DNA of 64,000 bases from a virus. Below, piece by piece: positions 6,481-55,947 of the stretch. Each line of letters begins with the position of its first letter. Position 1 is the first letter of the stretch. Made by a program: the position numbers and the translations under genes. Location of the stretch: positions 1 to 64,000 of IMG/VR virus record IMGVR_UViG_3300043570_000998; one strand, 5' to 3'. The notes beneath the pieces were generated by a model. It did no database searches. It was not told where the DNA came from and was given only the letters and a program-made list of their open reading frames with translations.

Positions 6481-8433
6481 GTGGTAGCACAATCATTCAC
6501 TCTTGGAGGAACAACAAGTTCCCCATTTAGTGGTGTTAACAACGCTGATTATGTTTCTGAATATAGACCTCAAGCCCAATATGTCTCTCCTTTATCTGGA
6601 GCATTCTTAGCAAATGGAACACCAGGATATGCTACTGGAGCAGGTGTTGTAGGAACTAGCGAAGTACTTAGAAGCGATGGACTTTATTATAGACCGCTTC
6701 TTTGGACTTCAATTTCAATGACTATGAGTGCTGGCAGCAGTACAGTTCAACTGCAAATTGCTAGTAATTCAAATGGTAGTGGTGGAGGTAATGGACCAAA
6801 TCAAGGAGATGCATCAACTGTAACTTGGAACTCAGCAAATGCAACAGAACCTCTTCAAGATATAGGGTTTTCCTGCACAACGACTGGGGCAAATGAAAAC
6901 TACTATCCTGGTTTTGAAAAACAAGATACAAATACAACTACGTTCCGACGAGGAGTATCATCTAATACAACTATTGCACCAAATGGCATTTATTTCAACG
7001 GAACGTTAGTTTCAGCTTGGGCAGGGAACTCTTTGAGGGCTACCGTTTCCTGGTGGCACGTTCCAAATCATCCAACATCATTAACTGCAACTGGTGGAAC
7101 TAATCCTGGAGAAGTCAACCTGTCTTGGACAGCCCCTGACGATAATGGAGGTGATGCAGTTTATGGATATCGAATTGCGTACAAAAAGACTGGAACTGCA
7201 ACGTGGTTTGTATATGGAACAAGTACCTATCAATCACCATCAAATACAACATCAACTTCAGAAACTCTAAGAGGGCTTGATCCAGGATCTGAATATTCTT
7301 TTGTTGTAGCAGCACTCAACATTGTAACTGATAGACATAATGGACCATCAGCTTATCCAAGTAGAATTTATGCAGACTATTCAGCAACTACAGCTCACAC
7401 AGGACAGAATTCAAACATTGCTACTGGAACAGCTACTGCACTTGCAGACGTTGCTCCTGAATTTGGGGCATACAGTGAGGTTCTTGCTAAATTTGTAGCA
7501 GCAAACCCTCAAGTTAGAGGAACTTCCGCTTGGTTCGATGGTACGCCTTGGATTTATGATGGATCTAAATGGAATCGACCTCTTCAAGTAACTGGCGGAA
7601 ATACTGCTACATACACCTCTGCAGGAATAACCTATACTGTTCATACTTTTTCTTCTTCTGAAAATTTTTATGTAAAAGAATGTCAAGCAGGACTAGCAAT
7701 TAGCTACCTCATTGTTGGTGGCGGAGGCGGCGGTGGTGGTAGATATATGGGTGGCGGAGGAGGAGCAGGAGGAGTTCTTTCTGGAACTGCCACTCTGACC
7801 TCTAATACAAACTACGGCATAGTAGTTGGCACTGGCGGTGCTGGTGGTTCTGCAGAAGGAGTTAAAGGTGTTACAGGAAAAGATAGTTCTTTTAATAGCA
7901 TAATCGCTAAGGGCGGTGGTGGAGCAGGGGCTTGGGTCTTTGCAGCAGGTGCAGCAGCTGGAGACGCACAGGGTCTTCCTGGTGGATCTGGTGGTGGTAA
8001 TTCTGGATATCTTGCAACAGCTGGTGGACTTGGTACAGCTGGTCAAGGTAATAATGGTGGTGTAGGTGCAACCTATGGTGCTGGAGGAGGTGGTGGAGCA
8101 GGGGCTGTAGGCTCTAACGGAACTGCAACTGTTGGTGGTGCTGGTGGTGTAGGAGTTTCTAATTCAATTACAGGTTCTGCTGTATTCTATGGAGGCGGTG
8201 GTGGTGGAGGTTCTTACAGCTCTGCAACTGTTCCTCAAGGTGGTAATGGTGGTGGAGGTAATGGAGCTCCTGGTCCAGCCAATACATCTGGTGGCGTTCC
8301 AACAGCTGGCACGAATGGTCTCGGTGGCGGCGGAGGTGGAGCTAATGGATACGGAACTACTGGAGCTACAAATGCTGGTGCTAGTGGTGGTAATGGCGTG
8401 GTAATTATTAGCTATATTTCAAGTATTACATAG
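6481..8433 (+). CDS. FN3 + glycine-rich domain tail fibre/adhesin
   Basis: FN3 paralogous to 1178..2179; C-terminal YLIVGGGGGGG...GGNGVVIISY glycine-rich domain. Confidence 0.7.
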   Translation: MVAQSFTLGGTTSSPFSGVNNADYVSEYRPQAQYVSPLSGAFLANGTPGYATGAGVVGTSEVLRSDGLYYRPLLWTSISMTMSAGSSTVQLQIASNSNGSGGGNGPNQGDASTVTWNSANATEPLQDIGFSCTTTGANENYYPGFEKQDTNTTTFRRGVSSNTTIAPNGIYFNGTLVSAWAGNSLRATVSWWHVPNHPTSLTATGGTNPGEVNLSWTAPDDNGGDAVYGYRIAYKKTGTATWFVYGTSTYQSPSNTTSTSETLRGLDPGSEYSFVVAALNIVTDRHNGPSAYPSRIYADYSATTAHTGQNSNIATGTATALADVAPEFGAYSEVLAKFVAANPQVRGTSAWFDGTPWIYDGSKWNRPLQVTGGNTATYTSAGITYTVHTFSSSENFYVKECQAGLAISYLIVGGGGGGGGRYMGGGGGAGGVLSGTATLTSNTNYGIVVGTGGAGGSAEGVKGVTGKDSSFNSIIAKGGGGAGAWVFAAGAAAGDAQGLPGGSGGGNSGYLATAGGLGTAGQGNNGGVGATYGAGGGGGAGAVGSNGTATVGGAGGVGVSNSITGSAVFYGGGGGGGSYSSATVPQGGNGGGGNGAPGPANTSGGVPTAGTNGLGGGGGGANGYGTTGATNAGASGGNGVVIISYISSIT

Positions 8434-8630: not shown

Positions 8631-9402
8631 ATTTCTTTTTAACTCTAGGCTTGGGTTTTGGTTCTTCAATTTTTTCTGCGGTAAGCATAATCTGGTGAGC
8701 AAACTTACCATTAAAGATATACTCTCCTGCGTGTACAATGTCTACCCAAGGAGCAGCAAATACTTCTCCCCCAAGTTCACGGTATTTACGGCAGAAGTGG
8801 TAATCCTCTGATAACAAGATACCCTGCTCAGTAATACTAGTAGCAAAGTATTCAGTAACCATCTGATTTGCATCAAATGCTCCAGTAGATGTGTTAAGCA
8901 TATACTGTGGGCAATGAGGCTTCATCATTTCAAATACCCCTTTCTTAATGAAAAGCATTCCAGTACCAACTTCGGTTACAGGAACTGGCTCATTAAGTTT
9001 AAAGGTAGTTTCGCCAGGTAGCATATTCATAGCAAAATATCCAGAGTAGTCAGAAAGATTCTCTTTACCGCCAATAGCAGCCTGTCGTACTTGTTCCCAG
9101 TTAATGTTCTTCATTGGATAAATAGCACCAATAACATCTTTGCCAGACTCAATCATATTGATAACATCCATATGGTTAAATCCTTCATCTGCATCAATGA
9201 ATAGTAGTGCGTCAGCACCAGACTTCTCAAACTCATAAACCAGGTTGTTACGAGCACGAGTGATTAGGCTTTCGTTGTAGATCTTAGAAAAAGATACTTG
9301 ATACCCTTTTCTGGCAAGCTCAAAGGTAAGAGCCATTAGACCGTCAACGTAAACGCCTTTACAGTTTCCCCCATACATAGGGGTAGCAATGTGTAAATGC
9401 AT
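8629..9402 (-). CDS. Glycosyltransferase (GT-A fold)
   Basis: IATPMYGG, ESLITRARN, LFIDAD (DxD), GTGMLFI and LSEDY.FC motifs; start placed at ATG9402 after GGAGAG. Confidence 0.8.
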   Translation of the reverse strand: MHLHIATPMYGGNCKGVYVDGLMALTFELARKGYQVSFSKIYNESLITRARNNLVYEFEKSGADALLFIDADEGFNHMDVINMIESGKDVIGAIYPMKNINWEQVRQAAIGGKENLSDYSGYFAMNMLPGETTFKLNEPVPVTEVGTGMLFIKKGVFEMMKPHCPQYMLNTSTGAFDANQMVTEYFATSITEQGILLSEDYHFCRKYRELGGEVFAAPWVDIVHAGEYIFNGKFAHQIMLTAEKIEEPKPKPRVKKK

Positions 9403-9430
9403 TGTCTCTCCATCTGTTAATTGTTCTAAT

Positions 9431-9461
9431 AGTATACCACGAAACACGTGTGTGGTAAACT
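9431..9461. promoter_or_regulatory. Back-to-back divergent extended -10 promoters
   Basis: Minus strand TGGTATACT (9431-9439) and plus strand TGGTAAACT (9453-9461). Confidence 0.55.
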
Positions 9462-9475
9462 TAATTAGGAGAAAA

Positions 9476-12400
9476 ATGGCTAATTTATATGCAGACGCAA
9501 TCTTTACAGATCACCCAACTTGCTTGTGGGCTTTAGACGAAACGATTTCTTTAGTAAGCGTACCTTCAATATCCGCACTTAATATTGCTGTAAGTAATAC
9601 TTATGGAGTAAAGGCAAATGCTTATGGCAATACCAGGTTTCCAGGATATTATCTTTCAGATAGCACAGAAGTTTATGTTAGAAATAACGGTATGCCGTTA
9701 GTCTTTGGATCATCATCGGTAACAAATATTTTGCCAAATGCCGACCACTCTGGTGAACCATCCCTGATTATTCCTGGATTTGGTTTTTTAAACAATGACG
9801 GCAGAGCAAAGAATCTAACTCTTGAAGTTTGGATTAGAGTAACATCATCAACACACTACCCTAGAAAAATAATTGGTCCTATTACTGGAACAGATGGACT
9901 ATATGTTAATGGACCATTTCTTACCTTAAAGGTAGACGACTATGTGGGGTCTCACTATGTTGGCGAGTGGGGTAGACCAATGCTTGTACAGATATACTAC
10001 ACAGGCAGCGGTGCTGGTGTTATCTTAAATGGTGAACAGGTTATATCCCTCACTTTTGACTACAAGAAAATTATTCTTGCATCAAAAACTTCAGTTGGCG
10101 GTGCTGATCAAGACTGGATTGGTTTTTACGCATATTCAAATGTCCCAATTATGCAGGTAGATTGTGTTGCAATTTATCCATATAAAATGTCAGCTCAAAA
10201 AGCAAAGCTTCACTATGTAAAAGGGCAGTCAGTTGACTCACCAGAAACTAGAAATACTTCTTATTCAGATGTCCCAATAATCTTTGACTATCAATTCTCT
10301 AAATATGCAAATAACTATATTTATCCTGGTAGTGGCAGATGGCAAAATGGAATAATTAATAATATTTCTACAGATAATAACTTGCTATCTGTACCAAATT
10401 ATTCTTTACCAGAAATTATTTTTCAGCAAACATCTACGCAAGAGCCAAAAACTGTTGATGGATGGTATGACTTACAAGAAACACTAACAGGTCAAAGTAT
10501 GACAACAACTCTAGTTGACGGTGATTTGCTTGATGATGAGGCTTTCTTTTCAATAAACCCAACAGAATCTGTTATAACAGAAAGTTCAGATGGTGGTACG
10601 CAAACAACAACAATAGAATCTATGTGGTCAAATGGATACCTAGTCTTTAATGAGTTTAATGTTTTATCGGGTAATAATGTAGAAGCTGTTTATGGAGTGT
10701 TTAAGATATTGACTCTGCCAGCAACAAAACAGGTACTATTTAAAATAGTTAATAACCTTGGACAATACTTTGAAGCATCACTACTTGACAATGACATATC
10801 TTATGTATTTGGATCTAGTGCAGGAGTAATTGAAACATTTACATCATCTAATGTGGTTATAGCAAATACTAAGTTTGTAGCAGGTATAGACATTAAAACT
10901 ATAGTTAGTCAGTCAACATCGCAAGATCTTACTGGATTTTTTGCAAATAGATCTTCGTTAAAGATGTATGTTGGTGGAACTTCAACATTTGAAAATACTT
11001 TTACTGGGAATATTTATAAAATTGGATTCTGCAATCAACAAAACTTTGCAAAAATATCAAGCAAGTTTTCAAGCGGTAAAGCAACTAATGCAGAACTAGC
11101 AACATTTGAGTCACACTTTGCATCATATACTCTTATAGGGTCAACTACGTTTGGCTCATTCGGACTTGACATTGCGGTTAATTCTACTTGGGAAGATTAC
11201 GTTCCGCTCTCACTACTCGGAAAAAATGTGGTAAATGATTCTTCTGGAAACCTTGACTACAGGCTTGACTTTATTCAACACAATATTGATTATCCAAATA
11301 TCTCCAATGTGACTAATGCAATAGTTAGATCATATGTAGAGTTTAAAGAAGTTGCTACATCTATTATTGATGTCAGTCAAACAGAAAAAACAAGTGTAAA
11401 CTTATCTTCACCAAATACATACATTGTTGCACCAGATGGCTCTTGGCAAAATAAAAGATATGAGGTTCAAAACAATACAGTTATTAAACTTCCAACTGGA
11501 GGATATGATGATTTTGAAGACCTTGCACTTACAACGTATATAGAATTTTTTATTCCTGGCATTATTAGAAATCCTGTTTCAATTAGATCGCTTCATATTT
11601 CTGCACAAGCACTAACTTATGAAATTCCTACAGAAATTGGTACTAAGCTTGGAAAAGATATTTACTCTTATGGAACAGATAGTGGAAACATCGCCTATAG
11701 ACCTTCATCTATTAACACTTATACTGTTTATAAAAATAGCACTCCATATTTATATCTAAGCAATTATACTGGAATAAAACTTTTAGGGACAACTGATGGC
11801 ACAAGAGGAATTGAGATTCCAATTAATAAAAATCTTAATGATGTATATAAGGTTAATTATGTTCAAATGTCTATGCTCAGTGAGATTGATTTTCCAAATA
11901 CTGCAGCAGAAATTTTTAGAGTAAAAGATTCAACTAAAGAGTTGATTGTTAAAACTGTTAGAGTAGATGCAAATTCTGCAACACTGTCTGTAACTTTAAA
12001 TGGATCTGCCTATGCGGATGCAGATGTATTTGTTGACGGTATACAAAATGGAACAATATATAAAAATCAATGGCATATGATTGGTATTCAATGCGATCCA
12101 CTTCTTACATTTGATAACTTTGGCACTGGCTACATTAGAATTACTGGTCCATTCTTGATTAATAATGTTTCAGATTATCAAATTCCAGCAGACCTTATAC
12201 GAGATAATCAAATCTATGATACTTGGAATGAGTATGTTGTGCCAGCAGATGCAGATAATAACTGGGCAAACGTCTTAACGGTATCGGCAACAACGCAAAA
12301 ATGGCAAGATGCATATATAGACTCTATTCAACAAGTTGGTGCAGTATTAAGTCCATCACAAATATACAACACATATCTTGGCAATAATAGAATAACATCG

Positions 12401-12493
12401 GACGAACAGAACACAAAACTTTCGGTATATTCTGATAGTTATAAAGTTTATCTAGACAACAGGTGGCAAACATATAACATCCTACCCCTATAA
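9476..12493 (+). CDS. Large virion protein with LamG/concanavalin-like N-terminal domain
   Basis: RBS AGGAG before ATG9476; D.P...W.LDE and TLEVWI motifs; beta-rich. Confidence 0.55.
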   Translation: MANLYADAIFTDHPTCLWALDETISLVSVPSISALNIAVSNTYGVKANAYGNTRFPGYYLSDSTEVYVRNNGMPLVFGSSSVTNILPNADHSGEPSLIIPGFGFLNNDGRAKNLTLEVWIRVTSSTHYPRKIIGPITGTDGLYVNGPFLTLKVDDYVGSHYVGEWGRPMLVQIYYTGSGAGVILNGEQVISLTFDYKKIILASKTSVGGADQDWIGFYAYSNVPIMQVDCVAIYPYKMSAQKAKLHYVKGQSVDSPETRNTSYSDVPIIFDYQFSKYANNYIYPGSGRWQNGIINNISTDNNLLSVPNYSLPEIIFQQTSTQEPKTVDGWYDLQETLTGQSMTTTLVDGDLLDDEAFFSINPTESVITESSDGGTQTTTIESMWSNGYLVFNEFNVLSGNNVEAVYGVFKILTLPATKQVLFKIVNNLGQYFEASLLDNDISYVFGSSAGVIETFTSSNVVIANTKFVAGIDIKTIVSQSTSQDLTGFFANRSSLKMYVGGTSTFENTFTGNIYKIGFCNQQNFAKISSKFSSGKATNAELATFESHFASYTLIGSTTFGSFGLDIAVNSTWEDYVPLSLLGKNVVNDSSGNLDYRLDFIQHNIDYPNISNVTNAIVRSYVEFKEVATSIIDVSQTEKTSVNLSSPNTYIVAPDGSWQNKRYEVQNNTVIKLPTGGYDDFEDLALTTYIEFFIPGIIRNPVSIRSLHISAQALTYEIPTEIGTKLGKDIYSYGTDSGNIAYRPSSINTYTVYKNSTPYLYLSNYTGIKLLGTTDGTRGIEIPINKNLNDVYKVNYVQMSMLSEIDFPNTAAEIFRVKDSTKELIVKTVRVDANSATLSVTLNGSAYADADVFVDGIQNGTIYKNQWHMIGIQCDPLLTFDNFGTGYIRITGPFLINNVSDYQIPADLIRDNQIYDTWNEYVVPADADNNWANVLTVSATTQKWQDAYIDSIQQVGAVLSPSQIYNTYLGNNRITSDEQNTKLSVYSDSYKVYLDNRWQTYNILPL

Positions 12494-20956: not shown

Positions 20957-21646
20957 ATGGCAACAGAAATTTATGAAACAGGAACTACTACGTTAGTAGA
21001 CGGAACAGAGATATATTTAACACCGCTAAAGATTAAATACCTTAGAGAATTTATGAAAGAGTTTGAGAATGTTAAACTTGCAAAAGATGATGCAGAAGCC
21101 GTGTCAGCATTAGCACAATGTGCCAGGGTATGTATGAAACAATTTTATCCATCTATAAAAACAATAGAAGAACTAGAAGATAGCCTTAATCTACCAGCTA
21201 TCTATAGAGTATTAGATATTGCAGCTGGAATTAAGATTGATGGTAATGATGAAGAAGAGCCAGTAAAAGATCAAGCAGTTGATAGCGGATCTAGCTGGGA
21301 CACCCTTGACCTAGCAACATTAGAAACAGAGGTGTTTCTTTTAGGAATATGGAAAGATTTTGAAGAGCTTGAATCATCAATATCTATGCCAGAACTAACA
21401 TCAATACTTAATGTAAAAAGAGACTTGGACTACCAGGAAAAAAAGTTTATGGCTGGAATCCAAGGGGTAGATCTTGACAAAGAAAGCGGTAGTCAAGACC
21501 TTTGGGAGCAAAAGAAAGCTAAGTTCTTTAGTGGTGGGGCAACAAGCGATGCAAATGACGTTGTAGCCTTACAAGGACCAAATGCGGCAAACGCTGGATT
21601 CGGAATAGGTATGGGACTAGGTTATGAAAAACTGGTCGAAAACTAA
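20957..21646 (+). CDS. Tail assembly chaperone, long (GT-like) form
   Basis: Between tube and tape measure; first ~95 aa paralogous to 21692..22009; TGGTACAAT 6 nt before ATG. Confidence 0.7.
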   Translation: MATEIYETGTTTLVDGTEIYLTPLKIKYLREFMKEFENVKLAKDDAEAVSALAQCARVCMKQFYPSIKTIEELEDSLNLPAIYRVLDIAAGIKIDGNDEEEPVKDQAVDSGSSWDTLDLATLETEVFLLGIWKDFEELESSISMPELTSILNVKRDLDYQEKKFMAGIQGVDLDKESGSQDLWEQKKAKFFSGGATSDANDVVALQGPNAANAGFGIGMGLGYEKLVEN

Positions 21647-21691: not shown

Positions 21692-22009
21692 ATGGCAACA
21701 ACAATTAATGAAGCTACACAGCTTACGCTTATCGACGGAACAGTTATTATGGTTCGTCCACTAAAGATCTCACTACTTCGTGACTTTATGAAGGAGTTTG
21801 AGGGAATTGCTAAGGTAGCAGAAGACAACGAAAAATCAATGAACATTCTTATGAAGTGTGTTCAAATTGCAATGAAGCAATACAGTCCAGAACTAGCAGC
21901 TGACGTAACTGCTCTTGAGGATAATATTGATCTACCAACCGTTTATAAGGTGGTAGAAGCAGCATCTGGAATTAACCTTTCCGATACTGTAGCTGGTCTT
22001 ATGGGCTAG
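21692..22009 (+). CDS. Tail assembly chaperone, short (G-like) form
   Basis: L.DGT....PLKI..LR.FMKEFE shared with upstream gene; own promoter 21657-21665; RBS AAGGAGG. Confidence 0.75.
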   Translation: MATTINEATQLTLIDGTVIMVRPLKISLLRDFMKEFEGIAKVAEDNEKSMNILMKCVQIAMKQYSPELAADVTALEDNIDLPTVYKVVEAASGINLSDTVAGLMG

Positions 22010-22034: not shown

Positions 22035-25000
22035 ATGGCTGAAGATGCAAATGCTAATATCCGCATAGATATTGACACTACCGCTGCTACTGCAGCACTT
22101 AAAACACTACAAAGTCAAATCGCAAGATTTCACACAGAGATGGCTCGTGGTGGAGCAGTAGCTGGTCAAAATGCTGCTAAACTACAACAAAACTTAATAA
22201 ACTCTATTAATGCTGGTGGTCAGTTCCAAGCAGGAATGACTAAAGTTCAGTCAACTACCGAAGCATTCACTACTGCCCTTGAGAAAAATAAACTTTCGAT
22301 GGGGCAGTATTTTAGATATGCTGGGGCATCTACAAAAACATTTGGAAGAATGTTTCGTGGTGAATTTGAAACAATTACAAAGGTAGCTACTGAAAGAGTT
22401 AAAGACCTTCAAACCCAATATATCTCAATGGGTCGTGATGCAAATGGAGCATTAAGATCAATCAAGATTAGACCCCTAACTCTTGATATGCAAAATCTTG
22501 CTACACAGTCAATGATTACTGCACAAAAACAGCAACTATATAATCAACTTCTTAAGCAAGGTTCTACGAACCTTCTAAACTTTGGTAAAAACACACAATG
22601 GGCTGGTCGTCAGCTTATGGTTGGTTTTACCCTTCCCCTTACAATGTTTGCATCAGTTGCTGCAAAATCATTTATGGACATTGAAAAACAAATAATTAGA
22701 ATTCGTCGTGTTTATGGAGACTTCTCTACAACCGTTAAAGAAACAGACGATATGATTGCGTCCATCAAATCTCTTGCAGGAGAATATACTAAGTATGGTG
22801 TTGCTGTAAAAGATACCATTGGTCTTGCTTCAGAAGCTGCCGCTGCTGGTAAGACAGGTCAAGAACTTCTTGCTCAAGTAGCACAGGCAACTCGCCTTGC
22901 AGTTCTTGGTAACGTAGAACAATCACAAGCTCTTGAAACAACAATGTCTGTTACCAATGCATTTGGTGTTGCCACTGAAGATCTTGCTAGTAAAATTGAC
23001 TTCCTTAACGCAGTTGAAAACCAATCCGTTACGTCTATCGAAGACTTAACGGTAGCTATTCCAAAGGCTGGACCTGTTGTTCAACAACTTGGTGGAGACG
23101 TAGAGGACTTGGCATTCTTCCTTACAGCAATGAAGGAAGGTGGGATTAACGCATCTGAAGGTGCTAACGCACTCAAATCTGGTCTTGCTGCACTTATTAA
23201 TCCAACTGGTAAAGCAAAAGAAATGCTTAAAGGTTTTGGTATTAATATTGAGAAGATTGTTAATTCAAATAAGGGAGATATTAAAGGACTTGTTATTGAT
23301 TTTGCGTCTGCACTTGATACCCTTGATCCACTTAGCCGTGCTCGTGCAATTGAGCAACTTTTTGGTAAGTTCCAGTTCTCACGTCTATCAACACTTTTTC
23401 AGAACGTAATTGGCGAGGGTACACAAGCAGCTCGTGTCCTTGAACTAACCAAAGCAACTACACAAGAGCTTGCAATCCTATCACAACGAGAACTTAAAAA
23501 GGTGGAAGACACAACTACCTACAAGTTTGAAAAAGCATTTGCTGACTTCCAGGCAGCAATAGCACCTGTTGGAGAACAATTCTTAAAAGCAGTTACACCA
23601 ATTATTGAGTTTGGTACAAAACTACTTAATCAGTTTAATGGTATGAGTGATGGTGCAAAGAGTTTTGCGGTTATCCTTACTACCGTAGTTGCAGGTATTG
23701 GTCCTGTGCTACTTATGACTGTTGGTCTTGTTGCTAACGGTGTAGCTAACCTTATTAAGATGTTCCAGGCACTTGGAACTATGTTTAAAAAGTCTGGGGC
23801 AGACACATCAATTCTTGGTATGCAAACAGAGTATATGACTCAACAACAGCTTGAAGCAGCAGCAGTAGCAGCATCACTTAATCAGTCACACAGCAGACTT
23901 ACTCAAACATTTAGCGTAGAGGCTGCAGCACTCAACTCTTTGACAGCAGCTTACCAAAAAGCAGTAACGGCACAACGTGGGTTTACAACACCTGGAGGTA
24001 GAGTCGCTGCAGGAAGTACAAAACCAAAGAAATTTGCTAATGGCGGAATGATTCGTGGTCCAGGATCAGGAACGTCGGACTCAATTCCTGCAATGCTTTC
24101 AAATGGCGAAGCTGTCATTCCTGCAAAACAAGCTAAAAAATATAGTGGTCTTATTAAAGAAATAATTTCTGGAAACGTTCCTGGATTTGCTGGCGGCGGT
24201 ATTCTTGGAGGAATGAAAAATATTCTTGGTGGAATGCTTGGTAGATCTAAAATTGCAACAAGGCTCCCCTCTGACGTACTTCTTAAAATGCTTTCATCTG
24301 GAAACACAAAGTATCAAAGTGGATTAGGAACAGGTGCTGGTGTAGATGCACAAAGTTTAGGCACTAATGTATATCAAAAAATGATTTTTGAAAGAAAACT
24401 TGCAGAAAATGCTGGTTTGGGTATTCCAATGGGTGCAGGTAATAATGCAAGACCAACCTATGGATCGGTTGCAACAGTAGGTCCAATTGCAAAATTCTTA
24501 AATAAACTTTTTGGTGGAAAAGTTGCTGGAAAGAATTTTAATGACATAACAAATCCACTTTCAGAACTATTAGATCAATATGGAGATGTTTCTCTTATTG
24601 CTAGAAATAGTGTAAAGAGTCAGTCAAGTATTTATCACGGAGATACTTTAATGGACAGTGTTAGGGGAGTTGGGTTTGGACAAAATGCTGGTCCAGTACC
24701 ATTCAATAACCTAGATCAAAATGCTGTAAATAAGTCTAGATTAAACAATATGTTTTCTGAATATGGTCAAACTAGAGTTGGAAATAGTATATCGGTTAAC
24801 AAAAAACCATCATATATAGAATCGCAAACTGCTGGTGGATTTGATGTTACTAAAGATATTGAAAAAATTCTTATCAAAAATCCAGAACTTCTTCCAGTAA
24901 TTCAACAAGCCCTAGCAGCAAGAGGTCTAAAAATACCAGTTAAGGTTGGTAAATATGCCAGGGGTGTAGTTAGTGTTCCTGGTCCCAAGGGTAAGGGTGA

Positions 25001-28000
25001 TGTTGTACCAGCAATGCTCTCTCCAGGAGAGGCAGTTATTCCTGCAAAGATGGCTAAGAAGTACGGACCTCTTATTAATGGAATGGTTGCTGGCAATATT
25101 CCTGGGTATCAAGAGGGAATTAACGCACCAGAATCGTGGAATCTTTCAGAACCTGGAGCAAGAAGAAGAGCCAGTCTTCAACAAAATTTTGATAATTTAT
25201 CTGCACAAGGATATAAGCCACAAATAAAACAAGTTATAGATTCCCTGAGTGGACTAAGAGTTTCTACAGAACAAGCAAGACAAATTTTTTCAAATATGAA
25301 CACAGCAGCAAAACTTGGACCAGAGCAACTTACTTCCTGGATTGCAGCATTAAAAGAAAATGCAACACTAACATCATCTGCTAGTGAACTAATTAAAACA
25401 CAAAAACTAAAAACTGGTGTGGCTAGTGGCGGTGCATCAACAAACTTTACACATATTGGTGCAGGAACAATTGTACCTGCACAACAAATACTAGATCAGT
25501 ATGGAACAGAAGGTCTTTCACAGGGGCAAGCAAACAACCTAAGAAATTTTGCACAACAAGGTAAAGATGTGCCTGTTAAGGGTATGCTTGGAATGGATAA
25601 TTTTAGTGCAGATGTAAATAGAAAACTTGCAACAAGTGGTGGAGCTACAATGAAAGAATTCTCAGACGCATTTGACACAGCAGGAATTCAGAAATGGAAC
25701 ACTAGTGTTATTTCTGGTGGCGGAAATATTCAAAAACTAGGTGCAGATATCTTAGCATTTGACAATAAGTTTAAAACACTAATTGCTGGTGTAAGTAAAT
25801 CAACCGTAATTTTTGATACAATGGGACAATCACAAACATATATGGCAAAAAATGCTAATGCTGCTGCAATATCTCTAGAACAGCTATATGCAACTGCAAG
25901 AGCATCTGCAACACAAGAATTGCGTCAGGCACTTGATACTGCACATACAACTCCAGGAGAGTTAAGATTTCAATCAAGTAGGCAGGGAAATCAAAAGTTC
26001 CCAGAAAGATTTAAAGGACTTTTAGCAAAGCAAGCAGAAACTGAATCAAAAAACTTTAGTTCACAGCTAGAACGTTTTGCTCAAACAGCATCTCCATCAA
26101 AACGTACAAAAAAAGTTGCAAAAGATACTGTTGATGGCTATGTTCAAGGTCTAAAAGAAGGAGAAAGCCAGATAAGAAAAGCTGGTAGAACAACAGGACG
26201 ACGTGTAACACAAGCTACTGGTGGACCAATTGTTGTTGATCAAACAGGAACTCAAGCAATGCCTACAGCAACCAGAAAGCCAAGACGTGCCACACGAGCA
26301 CAAGGATCTCCTGGACCAATAGTATACTCTCCAGATAATATGTTTGGTCCAGAGCCAGCTCCTAAGAAAAAGCCAGGACGTATTGCTAGTGCTGTTAAGG
26401 GTATGGGTGGTATGGGAGCAGGTATGGGTGTTGCTATGGCTGGTGGAGCATTAGCTATCGTCCCTGGTCTTGAGGGGCTAGGAACTGCTGCAGGTCTTGC
26501 TGGTAGTGCAATGATGATGATTCCTGGACCAATTGGAATTGTGGTTGCTGCCCTCATAGGATTTGTTGGTATTATAATGTCTGTAAAAGATGCGGTAGAC
26601 AAACAAAAACAAGCAGCTATTGATCTTGCAAACGCTCAAATAATGAGTATGGAAAAACTTAATACAATGGCTGAAGATTTTGGAACTGTTAGTGCAACAG
26701 AGGCAAGGGTAGCAGCAGAAGATGCCGCTGCCGCAGGAGTTTCTGAAAAACAAATGTCTGCTGGCACACAATATCTTACAGAAATGGTTAGTGGTCAACA
26801 GTTTGTTTCAGATGTAAAAACACAACAAGCTGCTGGAATATCTTCTGCAGAAATTGGAAAAAATGTTGCTGCAGATATGGCTACTGCTGTTGCACAAGGT
26901 GTTGTAACTCAGGAACAGGCTACAGAAATTATTGCTGCTCTTGGTTCTATGGTTGGAGACCGTGCAATTACTGCTGGGGCTTCTCAGCAATTTGGAACCT
27001 ATATGGAAGATCCTACAAAGGCTTCTGGTTTGATTGGTCAGGATAGGCTTACTCAACTACAAGGACAGTTTGGTGCTGCATCTCAGACAACAACCACTGC
27101 AGGTGGAAAAGGTGTTGTAACAACTATGGCAGATCCAAATGCTGCTTTAGGAGCAGTCTCTGCAACAATGAGTGCTTACGGTCAAACTGTTGGCGGTGTT
27201 GATGCAATTAATGCACAGTATGATGCTAAAGTAGCAGAGGCAACAACTCTAAAAGAAATTAATGCACTAGAGGCACAAAGGACTATAGATGTTAATGCTC
27301 AAAGAGATCTTGCAGCAGCAACATATGCTGAACTTGAAAAACAAAAAACTGCAATTGGTGCTGTAAAGTTTAATGAAGCATTCTTAAAGTCATTCGACAA
27401 AGATAGTGAAGCATACAAAACAGCAGAAAAGATTAATGCCCTTGAGGATAGTGAGTTTAAAACACAATTCCAAGCAGATTTTGCTGGTGGAAATATGAGC
27501 CAGGCAACTGCAGAAGCACTTGTTTTGCGTGGTAATAAAGGCGTTACAGCACATTATAAGATTAAAGCAAATGTTTCAATTAGCAAACAAGATGCTGCAA
27601 TGCTAAACAGACTAGAAGAACAGTATGGTACTGGTGTTACTGGTGGTACTACGCCGCCAAAAAAGAAAAAGAAAAAAGAACCTGTTACTACTACTGGTGA
27701 TAGTGGATCAGGAGCACCACCAGAAGATAAAAAACTTGCTAAATATAATAAAAAACTTGACAAACAACAAAAAGCACTTAGTGTCATTAATCTAGAAGAA
27801 GATGCAATTAACAAAAAATACCAAGACCGTGCAAAAGCTCTTGAGGATATTGCAAAGCTTAATGAAAGAATTGCACAGGGACAAAAAGATCAGCTTGCGG
27901 TTGCAAATGCTTTGGCTTCTGGAGATATTGCTGCTGCAGCAAGTGCTGTGCAGTCTGCAAGAGAATCTTCAGCACAACAATCTGCACAAGCACAAAAAGA

Positions 28001-28451
28001 AGGACTTGACAAAGCAAAACAAAATGAATTAGATGCAGTTTCATTTGGTGGAATGACAAGAAAATCGCTAGAAGCTTCTATGGCAGCTTTACAAATGGCA
28101 ATAGCTAGAAGAGAATACAAGTTAGCATCTAGCGGAGGTATGATGAGGGGATACTCTGTTGGTGGTAAGGTTATGTCATACTTTGCTGCTGGTGGAAAGC
28201 CACGAGGAAGTGATACAATCCCTGCTATGCTTACTCCTGGAGAGTTTGTTGTTAAACGACCTGCCGTGCAAAATTTTGGGGTAAAGAACCTACAAGCAAT
28301 CAATAGTGGTAAATCTCCTAACGCTTCAGTGTATAATTATAGTGTGACCGTTAATGCTGGAAGTAATGCAAATGCAGATCAAATTGCAAGCACCGTTATG
28401 TCTAAGATTAAAAAGGTAGAAGGATATAGGATTAGGGGAAATAGTCAATAA
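22035..28451 (+). CDS. Tape measure protein with inserted domains
   Basis: 2138 aa; TP901-type core (ENQSVTSIEDL..AIPKAGP, ASEGANALKSGL); hydrophobic segments; three D.(I/V)PAML(S/T).GE.V motifs. Confidence 0.92.
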   Translation: MAEDANANIRIDIDTTAATAALKTLQSQIARFHTEMARGGAVAGQNAAKLQQNLINSINAGGQFQAGMTKVQSTTEAFTTALEKNKLSMGQYFRYAGASTKTFGRMFRGEFETITKVATERVKDLQTQYISMGRDANGALRSIKIRPLTLDMQNLATQSMITAQKQQLYNQLLKQGSTNLLNFGKNTQWAGRQLMVGFTLPLTMFASVAAKSFMDIEKQIIRIRRVYGDFSTTVKETDDMIASIKSLAGEYTKYGVAVKDTIGLASEAAAAGKTGQELLAQVAQATRLAVLGNVEQSQALETTMSVTNAFGVATEDLASKIDFLNAVENQSVTSIEDLTVAIPKAGPVVQQLGGDVEDLAFFLTAMKEGGINASEGANALKSGLAALINPTGKAKEMLKGFGINIEKIVNSNKGDIKGLVIDFASALDTLDPLSRARAIEQLFGKFQFSRLSTLFQNVIGEGTQAARVLELTKATTQELAILSQRELKKVEDTTTYKFEKAFADFQAAIAPVGEQFLKAVTPIIEFGTKLLNQFNGMSDGAKSFAVILTTVVAGIGPVLLMTVGLVANGVANLIKMFQALGTMFKKSGADTSILGMQTEYMTQQQLEAAAVAASLNQSHSRLTQTFSVEAAALNSLTAAYQKAVTAQRGFTTPGGRVAAGSTKPKKFANGGMIRGPGSGTSDSIPAMLSNGEAVIPAKQAKKYSGLIKEIISGNVPGFAGGGILGGMKNILGGMLGRSKIATRLPSDVLLKMLSSGNTKYQSGLGTGAGVDAQSLGTNVYQKMIFERKLAENAGLGIPMGAGNNARPTYGSVATVGPIAKFLNKLFGGKVAGKNFNDITNPLSELLDQYGDVSLIARNSVKSQSSIYHGDTLMDSVRGVGFGQNAGPVPFNNLDQNAVNKSRLNNMFSEYGQTRVGNSISVNKKPSYIESQTAGGFDVTKDIEKILIKNPELLPVIQQALAARGLKIPVKVGKYARGVVSVPGPKGKGDVVPAMLSPGEAVIPAKMAKKYGPLINGMVAGNIPGYQEGINAPESWNLSEPGARRRASLQQNFDNLSAQGYKPQIKQVIDSLSGLRVSTEQARQIFSNMNTAAKLGPEQLTSWIAALKENATLTSSASELIKTQKLKTGVASGGASTNFTHIGAGTIVPAQQILDQYGTEGLSQGQANNLRNFAQQGKDVPVKGMLGMDNFSADVNRKLATSGGATMKEFSDAFDTAGIQKWNTSVISGGGNIQKLGADILAFDNKFKTLIAGVSKSTVIFDTMGQSQTYMAKNANAAAISLEQLYATARASATQELRQALDTAHTTPGELRFQSSRQGNQKFPERFKGLLAKQAETESKNFSSQLERFAQTASPSKRTKKVAKDTVDGYVQGLKEGESQIRKAGRTTGRRVTQATGGPIVVDQTGTQAMPTATRKPRRATRAQGSPGPIVYSPDNMFGPEPAPKKKPGRIASAVKGMGGMGAGMGVAMAGGALAIVPGLEGLGTAAGLAGSAMMMIPGPIGIVVAALIGFVGIIMSVKDAVDKQKQAAIDLANAQIMSMEKLNTMAEDFGTVSATEARVAAEDAAAAGVSEKQMSAGTQYLTEMVSGQQFVSDVKTQQAAGISSAEIGKNVAADMATAVAQGVVTQEQATEIIAALGSMVGDRAITAGASQQFGTYMEDPTKASGLIGQDRLTQLQGQFGAASQTTTTAGGKGVVTTMADPNAALGAVSATMSAYGQTVGGVDAINAQYDAKVAEATTLKEINALEAQRTIDVNAQRDLAAATYAELEKQKTAIGAVKFNEAFLKSFDKDSEAYKTAEKINALEDSEFKTQFQADFAGGNMSQATAEALVLRGNKGVTAHYKIKANVSISKQDAAMLNRLEEQYGTGVTGGTTPPKKKKKKEPVTTTGDSGSGAPPEDKKLAKYNKKLDKQQKALSVINLEEDAINKKYQDRAKALEDIAKLNERIAQGQKDQLAVANALASGDIAAAASAVQSARESSAQQSAQAQKEGLDKAKQNELDAVSFGGMTRKSLEASMAALQMAIARREYKLASSGGMMRGYSVGGKVMSYFAAGGKPRGSDTIPAMLTPGEFVVKRPAVQNFGVKNLQAINSGKSPNASVYNYSVTVNAGSNANADQIASTVMSKIKKVEGYRIRGNSQ

Positions 28452-42227: not shown

Positions 42228-45200
42228 ATGAGTTACGCTGGGCTACACGTTCATACACACTATAGTCTCTTTGACGGAATAGCTACCCCACAGGAATATG
42301 TGGATCGTGCGGTAGAGCTGGGTATGCCAGCAATTGCAATCACAGATCACGGAAGTCTCTCAGGACACCGTGAGTTATATCGCTCTGCTAAAGAAGCTGG
42401 CATCAAGCCAATTCTTGGCATTGAGGGGTACATCACTAAAGATCGCCTAGACCACACAGATAAAAAATATAAGCACGACCCCCTAGATCTTAACTATAAT
42501 CACCTTATTATTCTTGCAAAGAACACTATAGGTCTAGAGAACTTAAATAAGCTTAATGAGCTTGCTTGGACAGAAGGATTCTACAAGAAGCCTCGTATTG
42601 ATTGGAAGATTCTTGAACAATACAAAGAGGGGCTTGTTATTACTTCTGGCTGTTTGTCTGGGGTATTGGCTAAGGCAATCGAATCAGACAACCTAGCCTA
42701 TGCCAAGGAACACATCAAGTGGTGTAAGGATACTTTTGGTGACGACTACTACATTGAGGTAATGCCTCACAATCCTGCAGAAGTAAACAAGATGTTGCTT
42801 GAGCTTGCAGACGAGTTTGGTATTACACCTGTTGTTACACCTGACTGCCACCACTCCGATAAGAGCCAGAAAGAAATCCAGGAACTTAAACTAATCCTTA
42901 ACTCATACTCAAATAAAACTGTTGGAGATGCAACATATAACGGTACAAAGAAGTATGATAACCTTATGGACAAGCTAGACTACCTCTACGGGGCTGACCG
43001 CCAGATGTCATTTAACAAGTTTGACATTCACCTTTTGTCAGATGAAGAGATGCACAATGCAATGAAGGCTCAGGGTATTGACCGTGAGGATATGTACGAA
43101 GCAACTCTTGAGATCGTAAACAAGATTGAGGATTATGATATCCAGGACTACCGTGACTTGCTTCCTGTGCAGTACCAGGACCCTGACGGAGAGCTCCTCA
43201 GCCTCGCTCTAGAGGGCTTAAAGGCTAAGGGACTAGACCAGAACCAGGAATATATTGACCGCCTTAACGAAGAGCTGATGATTATCAAGGATAAGAACTT
43301 TGGTCCATACTTTTTAGTTGTACGGTCTATGATTTCTTGGGCAAAGAAGGAAGGCATTATGGTTGGACCAGGACGTGGTTCATCTGCTGGTTCGCTTTTG
43401 TGCTATTCACTTGGCATCACTGACATTGATCCTATCATACACGGCTTGCTATTCTTCCGATTTATTAATCCAGAACGTAATGACTTCCCAGATATTGATA
43501 CAGATATCCAAGATACACGCCGTGAAGAAGTTAAAGATTACTTGGTTCGTCAGTATCGTCACGTTGCTTCTATTGCTACGTTCTTGCAGTTCAAAGATAA
43601 GGGTGTGGTACGAGACATTGCTCGTGTGCTAAACATCCCTCTTCCTGACGTTAATAAGGTTATGAAGCTTGTAGATACTTGGGAAGACTACTGCTCTTCA
43701 TCATCTACAGCAGAGTTCCGTGAGAAGTATCCAGAGATTGAATTATATGGAGAGCAACTGCGTGGTCGTATCCGTGGTACTGGCATCCACGCTGCAGGTG
43801 TTGTTACATCCAAAGAGCCTATCTTTAAGTTTGCTCCAATGGAAACTCGCACAGCACCAGGAACTAAAGAGCGTATCCCTGTTGTTGCAGTAGATATGAC
43901 AGAGGCAGAGCGTATCGGTCTTATTAAGATTGATGCCCTTGGTCTAAAAACTCTTTCTGTTCTACAAGACACACTTGCAATTATTAAAGACCGTAGTGGC
44001 AAAGACATTGATCTTCTAAAGATTGATATGGATGATAAGAATGTTTACGATATGCTTTCTAACGGATTTACTAAAGGTGTCTTTCAGTGTGAAGCAACAC
44101 CATACACTAATCTACTTGTAAAAATGGGTGTAAAGAACTTTGCAGAACTTGCTGCTTCTAATGCTCTAGTCCGTCCAGGTGCAATGAATACAATTGGTAA
44201 AGATTACATTGCTCGTAAACACGGCAAGCAAAAGATTACCTATCTTCACAGTGTTATGAAAGAGTTTACAGACGAGACCTATGGATGTGTTCTATATCAA
44301 GAACAGGTTATGATTGCTTGTACAAATCTTGGCGGTATGACAATGGCAGAGGCTGATAAAGTTCGTAAGATTATTGGTAAAAAGAAAGATGCTCGTGAGT
44401 TTGACGTGTATAAAGATCAGTTTGTAAGAGGAGCTTCTCGATATGTAACTACCTTCCAAGCAGAAGAACTTTGGCACGACTTTGAGGCTCACGCAGGTTA
44501 CTCTTTTAATAAGTCACACGCCGTAGCATACTCAACACTTTCTTACTGGACCGCTTGGTTAAAGTATCACTACCCAATTGAGTTTATGTTTGCACTTCTC
44601 AAGAACGAAAAAGACAAGGATGCTCGCACAGAGTACCTTATCGAAGCAAAGCGTATGGGTATCCCAATTAAGTTGCCACACGTTAATGATTCAGATGCTG
44701 ACTTCAAGATTGAGGGCAAGGGTATTCGGTTTGGTCTTAGTGGTATCAAGTTCATTAGTGATAACATTGCAGAAAAGTATATCGCTGCTCGCCCCTTTAA
44801 CTCTTACAAAGAACTAGAAGAGTTCTCGTTTGGCAAGGGTAACGGAGTCAACTCTCGTGCATTGTCAGCACTAAGACTAATTGGTGCTGCTACATTCCCT
44901 GACCAGCCTCGTAATGATGAAGAGATTCGTGAGAACCTGTACGAGTACTTAAACCTACCAGAGTTCAACACATCAATTCCACAGCACTATCACGCATTTA
45001 TTAATGACGTTGAGGAGTATGAGGAAAAGGGAGCTTTTGTTATTATGGGTATTGTCAAGGGTATCAAACGAGGCAAAGGCTGGTCACGAGTAGAGGTACT
45101 AGATAAGACAGGGGCTATCGGTATCTTTGACGAAGAACAGTCTAAGGTTGAGGCAGGACGTACATACCTTATTCTTGCAAGTGACAATCGTATTGTTACA

Positions 45201-45506
45201 GCAATCCCTGCGGATGAAATTAAGGGTAATGATTCAGGTCTTGTAAAGATTCTTAACTACCGTATGCTACCCTATACAGACGACCAATTAATGGTTGTGT
45301 CATTCAGACCACGTATCACTAAGGCTGGTAAAAAGATGGCATCAATGGTGGTGGCAGACTCTTCACGAGAACTGCACTCAATCACAATCTTTCCAACTTC
45401 ATTTCCTAAAGCATATATGAAGATCAAGGAAGGCAATGTATATAAATTCTCTTTGGGTAAGACCAAAGATGGAACAACAATTATGGAGGATGTATTCGAT
45501 GTTTGA
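42228..45506 (+). CDS. dnaE: DNA polymerase III alpha subunit
   Basis: LHVHTHYSLFDG, AITDHG, GPGRGSSAGS, PDIDTD, GIHAAGVV, KIDALGL, YSFNKSH. Confidence 0.96.
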   Translation: MSYAGLHVHTHYSLFDGIATPQEYVDRAVELGMPAIAITDHGSLSGHRELYRSAKEAGIKPILGIEGYITKDRLDHTDKKYKHDPLDLNYNHLIILAKNTIGLENLNKLNELAWTEGFYKKPRIDWKILEQYKEGLVITSGCLSGVLAKAIESDNLAYAKEHIKWCKDTFGDDYYIEVMPHNPAEVNKMLLELADEFGITPVVTPDCHHSDKSQKEIQELKLILNSYSNKTVGDATYNGTKKYDNLMDKLDYLYGADRQMSFNKFDIHLLSDEEMHNAMKAQGIDREDMYEATLEIVNKIEDYDIQDYRDLLPVQYQDPDGELLSLALEGLKAKGLDQNQEYIDRLNEELMIIKDKNFGPYFLVVRSMISWAKKEGIMVGPGRGSSAGSLLCYSLGITDIDPIIHGLLFFRFINPERNDFPDIDTDIQDTRREEVKDYLVRQYRHVASIATFLQFKDKGVVRDIARVLNIPLPDVNKVMKLVDTWEDYCSSSSTAEFREKYPEIELYGEQLRGRIRGTGIHAAGVVTSKEPIFKFAPMETRTAPGTKERIPVVAVDMTEAERIGLIKIDALGLKTLSVLQDTLAIIKDRSGKDIDLLKIDMDDKNVYDMLSNGFTKGVFQCEATPYTNLLVKMGVKNFAELAASNALVRPGAMNTIGKDYIARKHGKQKITYLHSVMKEFTDETYGCVLYQEQVMIACTNLGGMTMAEADKVRKIIGKKKDAREFDVYKDQFVRGASRYVTTFQAEELWHDFEAHAGYSFNKSHAVAYSTLSYWTAWLKYHYPIEFMFALLKNEKDKDARTEYLIEAKRMGIPIKLPHVNDSDADFKIEGKGIRFGLSGIKFISDNIAEKYIAARPFNSYKELEEFSFGKGNGVNSRALSALRLIGAATFPDQPRNDEEIRENLYEYLNLPEFNTSIPQHYHAFINDVEEYEEKGAFVIMGIVKGIKRGKGWSRVEVLDKTGAIGIFDEEQSKVEAGRTYLILASDNRIVTAIPADEIKGNDSGLVKILNYRMLPYTDDQLMVVSFRPRITKAGKKMASMVVADSSRELHSITIFPTSFPKAYMKIKEGNVYKFSLGKTKDGTTIMEDVFDV

Positions 45507-52870: not shown

Positions 52871-52881
<11 letters not shown>
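52480..52881 (+). CDS. nrdI: Flavodoxin NrdI
   Basis: [22 protein letters not shown]. Confidence 0.93.

Positions 52882-55947
<3,066 letters not shown>

Follow-up and report, generated by a model that had tools for sequence, protein, structure and literature searches.

A predicted SopF-like ADP-ribosyltransferase in a repeat-bounded slot of a phage tape measure protein

Can the tape measure protein of a phage tail carry an enzyme into the host, and can one such enzyme be exchanged for another? The question is raised by a 64,000-nucleotide stretch of viral DNA (positions 1 to 64,000 of IMG/VR record IMGVR_UViG_3300043570_000998, hereafter the window); the whole record has 89,842 bases, an estimated completeness of 83% and a G+C content of about 35-42%, and its source is a roughly 90-kb siphovirus-type phage. 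A first-pass annotation, made from the sequence alone, had noticed two similar blocks in the tail tape measure protein (TMP) and had proposed that the region between them is a swappable cassette, resembling ADP-ribosyltransferases (ARTs), that is delivered into the host before phage gene expression. In this report, we show that an ART with intact nicotinamide adenine dinucleotide (NAD)-site residues is part of the TMP polypeptide and occupies a repeat-bounded slot whose content varies among related TMPs, and we weigh what such a module may do.

Family and predicted fold of the insert

The features on which the argument rests are the gene, the module and three residues of its predicted active site (aa, amino acids; all positions are those of the window):

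22035 to 28451, plus strand: TMP gene (P0002, 2138 aa), a single open reading frame (ORF) assigned by PF10145, TIGR01760, the PHROG tape-measure families and its gene neighbours.
24201 to 24953, plus strand: SopF/DUF3626-like ART module (P0003, TMP aa 723-973, 251 aa), predicted from hhalign, the structural model, Foldseek and VIA.
24459 to 24461, plus strand: Tyr809 in RPTYG, equivalent of SopF Tyr224; RPTYG aligns with RPIYGY of the DUF3626 profile (hhalign).
24579 to 24581, plus strand: Tyr849 in QYGD, equivalent of SopF Tyr240, aligned to the SopF chain (HMMER).
24819 to 24821, plus strand: Glu929 in YIESQ, equivalent of the catalytic SopF Glu325, aligned to YIEAH of SopF (HMMER) and YVEAQ of the DUF3626 profile (hhalign).

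The carrier shows the features of a TMP of the PF10145/TIGR01760 (TP901) type, namely the family domain, hydrophobic segments and gene position: PF10145 matches aa 253-444 (E 9.8e-27, Pfam), TIGR01760 matches aa 201-557 (E 2.7e-36, NCBIfam), and the ORF also matches the PHROG tape-measure families. Searched exhaustively with HMMER, 1.84 billion representatives yielded 52 clusters with the module, 39 of them at E ≤ 1e-10; 41 of the 52 consist of proteins of about 2000-3400 aa, and the other 11 of shorter proteins or fragments. Five of 16 relatives match PF12294, the SopF family, by themselves. P0146, whose match to the window's module has E 3e-5, passes the cut-off of that family (40.7 bits, E 1.9e-10), and P0148 (24.8 bits) and P0143 (20.7 bits) remain under the gathering threshold of 27 bits, which the window's own sequence does not reach either. 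When a profile of 14 TMP modules (the window's and those of 13 further loci, taken from DNA) was compared by hhalign with a profile of 19 proteins bearing a precomputed PF12294 label, the two aligned at 99.5% and E 1.3e-22 over 195 columns, covering module positions 13-248.

The predicted structure points the same way. An AlphaFold2 model of the module with a repeat on either side, built from 25 aligned sequences, has a mean predicted local distance difference test (pLDDT) score of 76; the module itself scores 80-95 in most 10-residue blocks, with dips to 62 and 77-79, and two linker stretches and the chain ends fall below 50. The insert, which the first-pass annotation had called non-helical, is modelled as a mixed alpha/beta domain, so that description held only in part. 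Foldseek against the PDB placed SopF first (7dn8_A, E 8.1e-6; 7dn9_A, E 1.3e-5), then DarT entries (E 5e-3 to 5e-2), then CteC, Tpt1, pertussis S1 and PARP1. VIA aligned SopF at Z 12.7 with a root-mean-square deviation of 3.2 over 191 residues (model 56-306 with SopF 120-374, 12-14% identity), followed by DarT (Z 8.8-10.9 for the six entries listed), Tpt1 (8.7), CopC (6.3), CteC (5.6), pertussis S1 (3.8) and PARP1 (2.4); all 26 VIA rows listed are ARTs or Tpt1. Profile comparison and model together bear out the DUF3626/ART likeness proposed earlier, and both place the insert, as a divergent member, in the SopF/DUF3626 lineage of ARTs.

The short motifs quoted in support of that likeness lie where they had been placed, RPTYG at 24450 and YIESQTAGGFDVTKDIEKI at 24813, and QYGDVSLI and SIYHGDT are present as well. 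In a set of 42 family members (the window's module plus 41 representatives clustered at 50% identity), the positions of Tyr809 and Tyr849 are each tyrosine in 41 and phenylalanine in one, Glu929 is glutamate in all, and R787, E791, P807, G850, D870 and G935 are invariant. Because its NAD-site residues are conserved across the 42 members, the module is predicted to be a working enzyme. The residue before the first tyrosine stands at what we take to be the isoleucine position of the SopF triad. The module has threonine there, not histidine, in keeping with the I-Y-E triad of SopF rather than an H-Y-E triad (PMC10333799; statements given with a PMC number refer to the portions of those papers that were available). 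SopF, solved as 7DN8/7DN9, is an ADP-ribosyltransferase that modifies a protein glutamine (PMC10333799), and DUF3626 corresponds to its residues 178-338 (PMC6682159). Its activity is largely blocked by E325A, at the N-ribose contact, and by Y224A and Y240A, at the nicotinamide contacts (PMC11937434); these residues were placed in the motifs RPIY, AYGK and YIEAH from the primer table of that paper.

The repeated motif and the content of the slot

The insert is bracketed by two copies of a 57-aa motif, and a third copy stands near the end of the protein:

24027 to 24200, plus strand: repeat R1 (TMP aa 665-722, motif PAMLSNGE), from the repeat hidden Markov model (HMM) envelope and BLASTP against R2.
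24948 to 25121, plus strand: repeat R2 (TMP aa 972-1029, motif PAMLSPGE), from the repeat HMM envelope; homology to P0122 resumes here.
28152 to 28334, plus strand: repeat R3 (TMP aa 2040-2100, motif PAMLTPGE, about 40 aa from the C-terminus), from the repeat HMM and BLASTP.
25122 to 26354, plus strand: variable segment after R2 (TMP aa 1030-1440, about 410 aa), without counterpart in the relatives P0104 or P0005.

R1 (aa 667-722) and R2 (aa 974-1028) share 31 of 57 residues (E 2e-15, BLASTP with a search space of protein size), which upholds the earlier claim of two paralogous blocks in one TMP ORF; the end of the first is corrected from 24198 to 24200, in frame. That inventory had missed R3, a weaker and more divergent copy (E 4e-5 against R1, E 9e-5 against R2). 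Since self-BLASTP of the whole TMP returned only the self match, the repeats were compared piecewise. In the DNA, 100 of the 174 aligned columns of R1 and R2 are identical, with a longest identical run of about 11 nucleotides by eye, from which we conclude that the duplication is old and has been kept by selection on the protein; the same count rules out a recent DNA duplication or att-like DNA repeats as its origin. The AlphaFold2 model gives the repeats a strand and two short helices at pLDDT of about 65-73, and a likeness of R2 to dihydroxy-acid dehydratases (E 0.06-0.8) was treated as chance. PDB chain 8zdo_S (tape measure protein gp16, 1699 aa) shows weak matches to the C-terminal repeat at 968-1012 and 1416-1460, with E 0.012 for the whole sequence and each stretch above E 10; it is a lead only, and might show the seat of the motif in a tail if those residues are modelled.

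What lies between the repeats differs from one TMP to another. Over aa 1-716, a span that takes in most of R1, P0122 and the window's TMP have 66% identity; P0122 then differs until similarity returns, at 67% identity, over aa 957-1029 (R2). Its slot holds a kinase-like module followed by a HAD phosphatase (PF03767). In P0104, the nearest relative and a fragment, identity is 90% over window aa 919-1028 and homology ends exactly at aa 1028, with no match to aa 1029-1440 and a return further on at 44% and 63%. Two other relatives, P0020 and P0089, are 83-100% identical to aa 660, only 15-23% identical between R1 and R2, and 65-83% identical again from R2; one of these two unrelated slots holds the ART and the other the alternative, kinase-like module. 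In all three TMP pairs compared, homology breaks at repeat edges. The proposal of a swappable cassette bracketed by the repeats is supported by these alignments, and the region is far from invariant, the contents of the slot or of the place after the first repeat in related TMPs including a kinase-like module, a kinase-like module with a HAD phosphatase, and no fewer than eight further sequence types.

The alternative module, of about 290 aa, is present in 20 stored relatives, including P0122, P0152 and P0060. Folded inside P0152, in the arrangement repeat-module-repeat, it reaches pLDDT of about 67-97 over residues 160-440, mostly above 75. Its best Foldseek match has E 2.7e-3, with none at E ≤ 0.001, and the top rows are overwhelmingly kinase-like; VIA gives CotH (Z 11.2), CtkA (10.2), MavQ (10.1), PI4KII (9.7) and HipA (8.6), and 50 of 50 rows are kinase-like. 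Pfam found only the TMP domain in P0004, P0020 and P0122, plus the HAD phosphatase in P0122. Judged by eye from short motifs, P0020 may also carry a nucleotidyltransferase-like module, and P0004, P0012, P0121 and P0122 may carry PARP-like modules.

Variation continues beyond R2. The segment of aa 1030-1440, which may be a second cargo module, has no Pfam match and no significant PDB sequence match, and its Atlas neighbours are unnamed clusters of viral hypothetical proteins. Na/K-ATPases appeared as a PDB sequence match for aa 1030-1400 (E 0.035-0.5) and were taken as chance. Compared by eye, the segment has a conserved pattern in common with segments of P0004, P0016 and P0020. The ART module also occurs in other settings: P0148 (649 aa) combines a Phage_Mu_F domain (E 2.7e-14) with the module at its C-terminal end (HMM E 8.6e-46) and has no repeats, and P0146 (742 aa) has more than one copy, a full one (aa 127-354) and another, split into two HMM matches, that spans aa 518-741.

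A tentative alternative, which we regard as possible without preferring it, is that the repeats are neither cleavage sites nor junctions but functional elements of the TMP, such as contacts with tube, hub or chaperone, trimerisation points or aids to membrane insertion. Ordinary TMPs of cultured phages commonly have the motif: a tblastn search with repeat, module and repeat matched TMP genes in 69 GenBank records of phages with a wide variety of hosts, so the motif is a general TMP element and not peculiar to the ART insert. The repeat HMM finds 2-5 copies in 137 of 138 stored proteins of at least 1000 aa (the window's TMP included), the first copy lying near aa 662-740 in most full-length relatives, directly after the conserved N-terminal core, and the last roughly 40-190 aa from the end in all relatives with a complete C-terminus. 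The divergence of R1 and R2 in DNA, set beside their conservation as protein, suits such a role too, as does the C-terminus of the TMP that sits as a hub trimer in T5 and 80alpha (PMC10038345). Against this, homology breaks coincide with repeat edges in three of three pairs, and at the modest confidence of the model no independent fold supports a binding role. Most likely, the repeats would serve as conserved in-frame junctions for recombination and cassette exchange between TMP genes, perhaps with a further role in docking or processing.

Proposed role of the module

We consider it probable, by analogy with other virion-borne enzymes, that the tail brings the module into the cell together with the DNA or before it, and that the module then uses cytoplasmic NAD+ to ADP-ribosylate some component of the host. 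As judged from other systems, the TMP would fill the tail tube and leave first at infection; the ART would then arrive no later than the DNA, take up its fold in the cytoplasm, which supplies NAD+, and modify a host target, either a protein, as SopF does, or a nucleic acid, as DarT and Tpt1 do. Such ADP-ribosylation would serve takeover or counter-defence before phage gene expression.

Several observations weigh against this reading at one step or another. As regards the identity of the module, Pfam gave no match to PF12294 for P0001, for P0002 (beyond its TMP domain) or for P0003, even at E ≤ 10 for the module; a PDB sequence search with the window's module alone found no match, and the module profile matched SopF among PDB sequences at only E 0.021 (HMMER). 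A PF12294 search of the whole 89.8-kb record also found nothing, but says little, the control being negative in 14 of 14 genomes as well. As regards its carriers, tblastn with the module alone found it in none of 50,697 GenBank phage records at E ≤ 0.1, that is, in no cultured phage; the carriers found are all uncultured, with homologues from public protein collections and 28 loci from IMG/VR and metagenome contigs. In the 69 records named above, the query of repeat, module and repeat was matched in its repeat part only (best coverage 38%, none reaching 80%). Megablast of the TMP gene against the same 50,697 records gave only a patch of 44-58 nucleotides in the TMP genes of 13 Streptomyces phages, and a related-locus search with the single module gave 18 pattern matches, none of which was confirmed.

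As regards the slot, the ART module is present in 117 of 138 stored proteins, in 120 occurrences, of which 36 are flanked by two repeats, 74 by one and 10 by none; with only 36 of the 120 enclosed, the repeats are not obligatory cassette ends. Directly after the first repeat, 137 proteins hold the ART in 92 cases, the kinase-like module in 9 and other sequences, in eight sequence clusters, in 36, a split that is biased towards the ART by retrieval with ART-containing queries and in which the 'first' repeat of an N-terminally cut fragment may not be R1. These assignments come from module-level HMM and BLAST classification, which replaced a single-linkage clustering of inter-repeat segments that had merged unlike ones. 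As regards delivery, Pfam and NCBIfam revealed no protease or metallopeptidase domain and no known cleavage motif in the TMP, and by our own estimate three copies of a folded 28-kDa domain are unlikely to fit the lumen of a siphovirus tube, so that the domain would need to pass through in an unfolded state.

The substrate of DarT is thymidine in single-stranded DNA. It is rather unlikely that the module is likewise a nucleic-acid ART, modifying host DNA or incoming DNA or RNA and, for example, stalling host replication or marking DNA. The scores of DarT come near that of SopF (best Z 10.9, with 174-181 residues in the top DarT rows, against 12.7), the RNA 2'-phosphotransferase Tpt1 follows, and the module would enter next to DNA; against this, its sequence family is DUF3626/SopF, and the substrate of SopF is a protein (PMC10333799). 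Since the model resembles both SopF and DarT, it does not by itself decide between a protein and a nucleic-acid target.

Two further explanations we hold to be improbable. The enzyme could act late in the producing cell, within unassembled TMP, rather than in the newly infected one: large amounts of TMP are produced late in infection, a domain that has folded in unassembled chains could work there, and no macro-domain or other reversal enzyme was found in the 89.8-kb record (no matches, with a control positive in 10 of 14 genomes), but the module recurs in TMPs and in MuF proteins, two different carriers inside the virion, which suits delivery better. That the module is a pseudo-enzyme or a structural spacer adding length or bulk to the tape measure would fit its lack of a direct Pfam match, its great divergence from characterised ARTs (12-14% identity to SopF) and the many TMP regions without a catalytic role, but accords poorly with three NAD-contact and six further positions that are invariant or nearly so in 42 members, and with its service as the terminal domain of the MuF protein P0148.

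Returning to delivery from the tail, we offer more speculatively the broader idea that giant TMPs are a polymorphic effector-delivery platform, the tail-borne counterpart of Rhs/type VI secretion or MuF polymorphic toxins; taken as a whole, we would not yet bet on it. The 57-aa motif would be a universal in-frame junction, possibly also a release or docking signal, between copies of which phages would exchange ready-made enzymes, among them a SopF-type ART, a CotH/PI4K-like kinase and a HAD phosphatase. Driven into the host before the DNA, such enzymes would disarm defences or seize the cell prior to transcription.

Genomic setting and relation to known systems

The ART insert sits between two hydrophobic segments of the TMP:

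23655 to 23762, plus strand: first hydrophobic, membrane-type segment (TMP aa 541-576; Kyte-Doolittle maximum 2.23, 19-aa window).
26490 to 26600, plus strand: second hydrophobic segment (TMP aa 1486-1522), after a Gly/Ala/Met-rich stretch (Kyte-Doolittle maximum 2.52).

Upstream of the gene lie an Ig-domain tail protein and then two chaperone-like ORFs, and downstream lie minor tail protein genes; the window also codes for a portal, a prohead protease, an HK97-type capsid protein, a DnaE-type polymerase and a ribonucleotide reductase. The two plus-strand ORFs just 5' of the TMP gene, 20957-21646 and 21692-22009, both start with phrog_10504 (E 2e-21 and 5e-17), the longer having phrog_10474 in addition; they resemble two paralogous tail assembly chaperones rather than the usual frameshifted G/GT pair. 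Four other plus-strand ORFs may be recorded. The first (9389-12493, 1034 aa), which separates the packaging genes from the portal, matches neither PHROG (E ≤ 1e-5) nor Pfam (E ≤ 1e-3); the second (6481-8433, 650 aa), which belongs to the head and packaging region, combines a fibronectin type III domain with the glycine-rich domain PF21722 (E 2.3e-18). The third (42228-45506) is a DnaE-type DNA polymerase III alpha with PHP, NTPase, finger and HHH domains, and the fourth (52871-54988) a ribonucleotide reductase large subunit with an RNR_N domain.

Among characterised proteins, SopF, a Salmonella type III secretion effector (PF12294, 7DN8/7DN9), is closest to the module: it belongs to the same family, is the best fold match and has the equivalents of all three active-site residues in Y224, Y240 and E325. 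Unlike SopF, the module is embedded in a phage tail protein rather than being a free secreted effector, is without the N-terminal region of SopF, and lies below the Pfam threshold at low identity. Moreover, the activator of SopF (ARF GTPases) and its target (the V-ATPase) are eukaryotic and cannot apply in a bacterium (PMC10333799). DarT, of the DarTG system (7OMV-7OMY, 7YK3, 8BAQ), has an ART fold of the same clade and aligns over nearly the whole DarT chain (Z 10.0-10.9 for five of the six entries); no sequence-family link to it was found, and DarT has a macro-domain antitoxin, of which there is none in this phage record.

Virion-delivered ARTs and enzyme-bearing TMPs are both known already, and a SopF-type ART in a tape measure is a variant of these. 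For ARTs, we take Alt and VIP2 to belong to the R-S-E clade. T4 Alt and the ARTs fused to MuF proteins are late products that are packaged into the virion and reach the host along with the DNA (PMC5512222, PMC7302621), and MuF proteins are known to bear toxin or ART domains that the virion delivers (PMC7302621, PMC5512222); the present module itself also occurs fused to MuF, in P0148. Those proteins are head-internal, however, and the MuF fusions are of VIP2 type (PMC5512222, PMC7302621), whereas here the carrier is a tail TMP and the ART is of SopF type. For TMPs, gp96 of the Thermus phage P23-45 is fused to a virion RNA polymerase (PMC10770324), and pb2 of T5 has a muralytic domain, which a cut after R1127 separates from the hydrophobic stretch of the protein (PMC10038345). 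Both resemble the present case as enzyme-bearing TMPs but carry other enzymes, and the available portions of these papers do not describe repeat-bounded, interchangeable slots (PMC10770324, PMC10038345). Our literature searches found nothing joining SopF or DUF3626 with tape measures, and nothing on the theme of tape measure proteins carrying an ADP-ribosyltransferase.

The idea of a platform has its nearest precedents in two further systems. Polyvalent proteins (Iyer et al. 2017, PMC5512222) string variable effector domains along one giant delivered polypeptide, but usually, in the portion of that work available, include a processing metallopeptidase, of which Pfam and NCBIfam gave no sign here, and the TMP has one recognisable effector domain; the term 'tape measure' is absent from the main text of that paper (PMC5512222). 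Sle1 (PMC13277306) is a TMP-related effector scaffold with exchangeable functional domains, belonging to a contractile injection system and not to a phage tail.

Enzymes delivered by the virion precede phage gene expression, which makes them important both in taking over the host and in evading bacterial immunity. The examples known so far are proteins inside the head (T4 Alt and the MuF fusions), a few TMPs with muralytic domains and one with an RNA polymerase. If our interpretation is true, a swappable TMP slot for enzymes that act in the cytoplasm would widen the known protein-delivery routes of siphoviruses, the PAMLSPGE motif would offer a simple sequence handle for finding new effector modules in metagenomes, and the SopF family, studied only as an effector against eukaryotic cells, would gain a context in the bacterial world.

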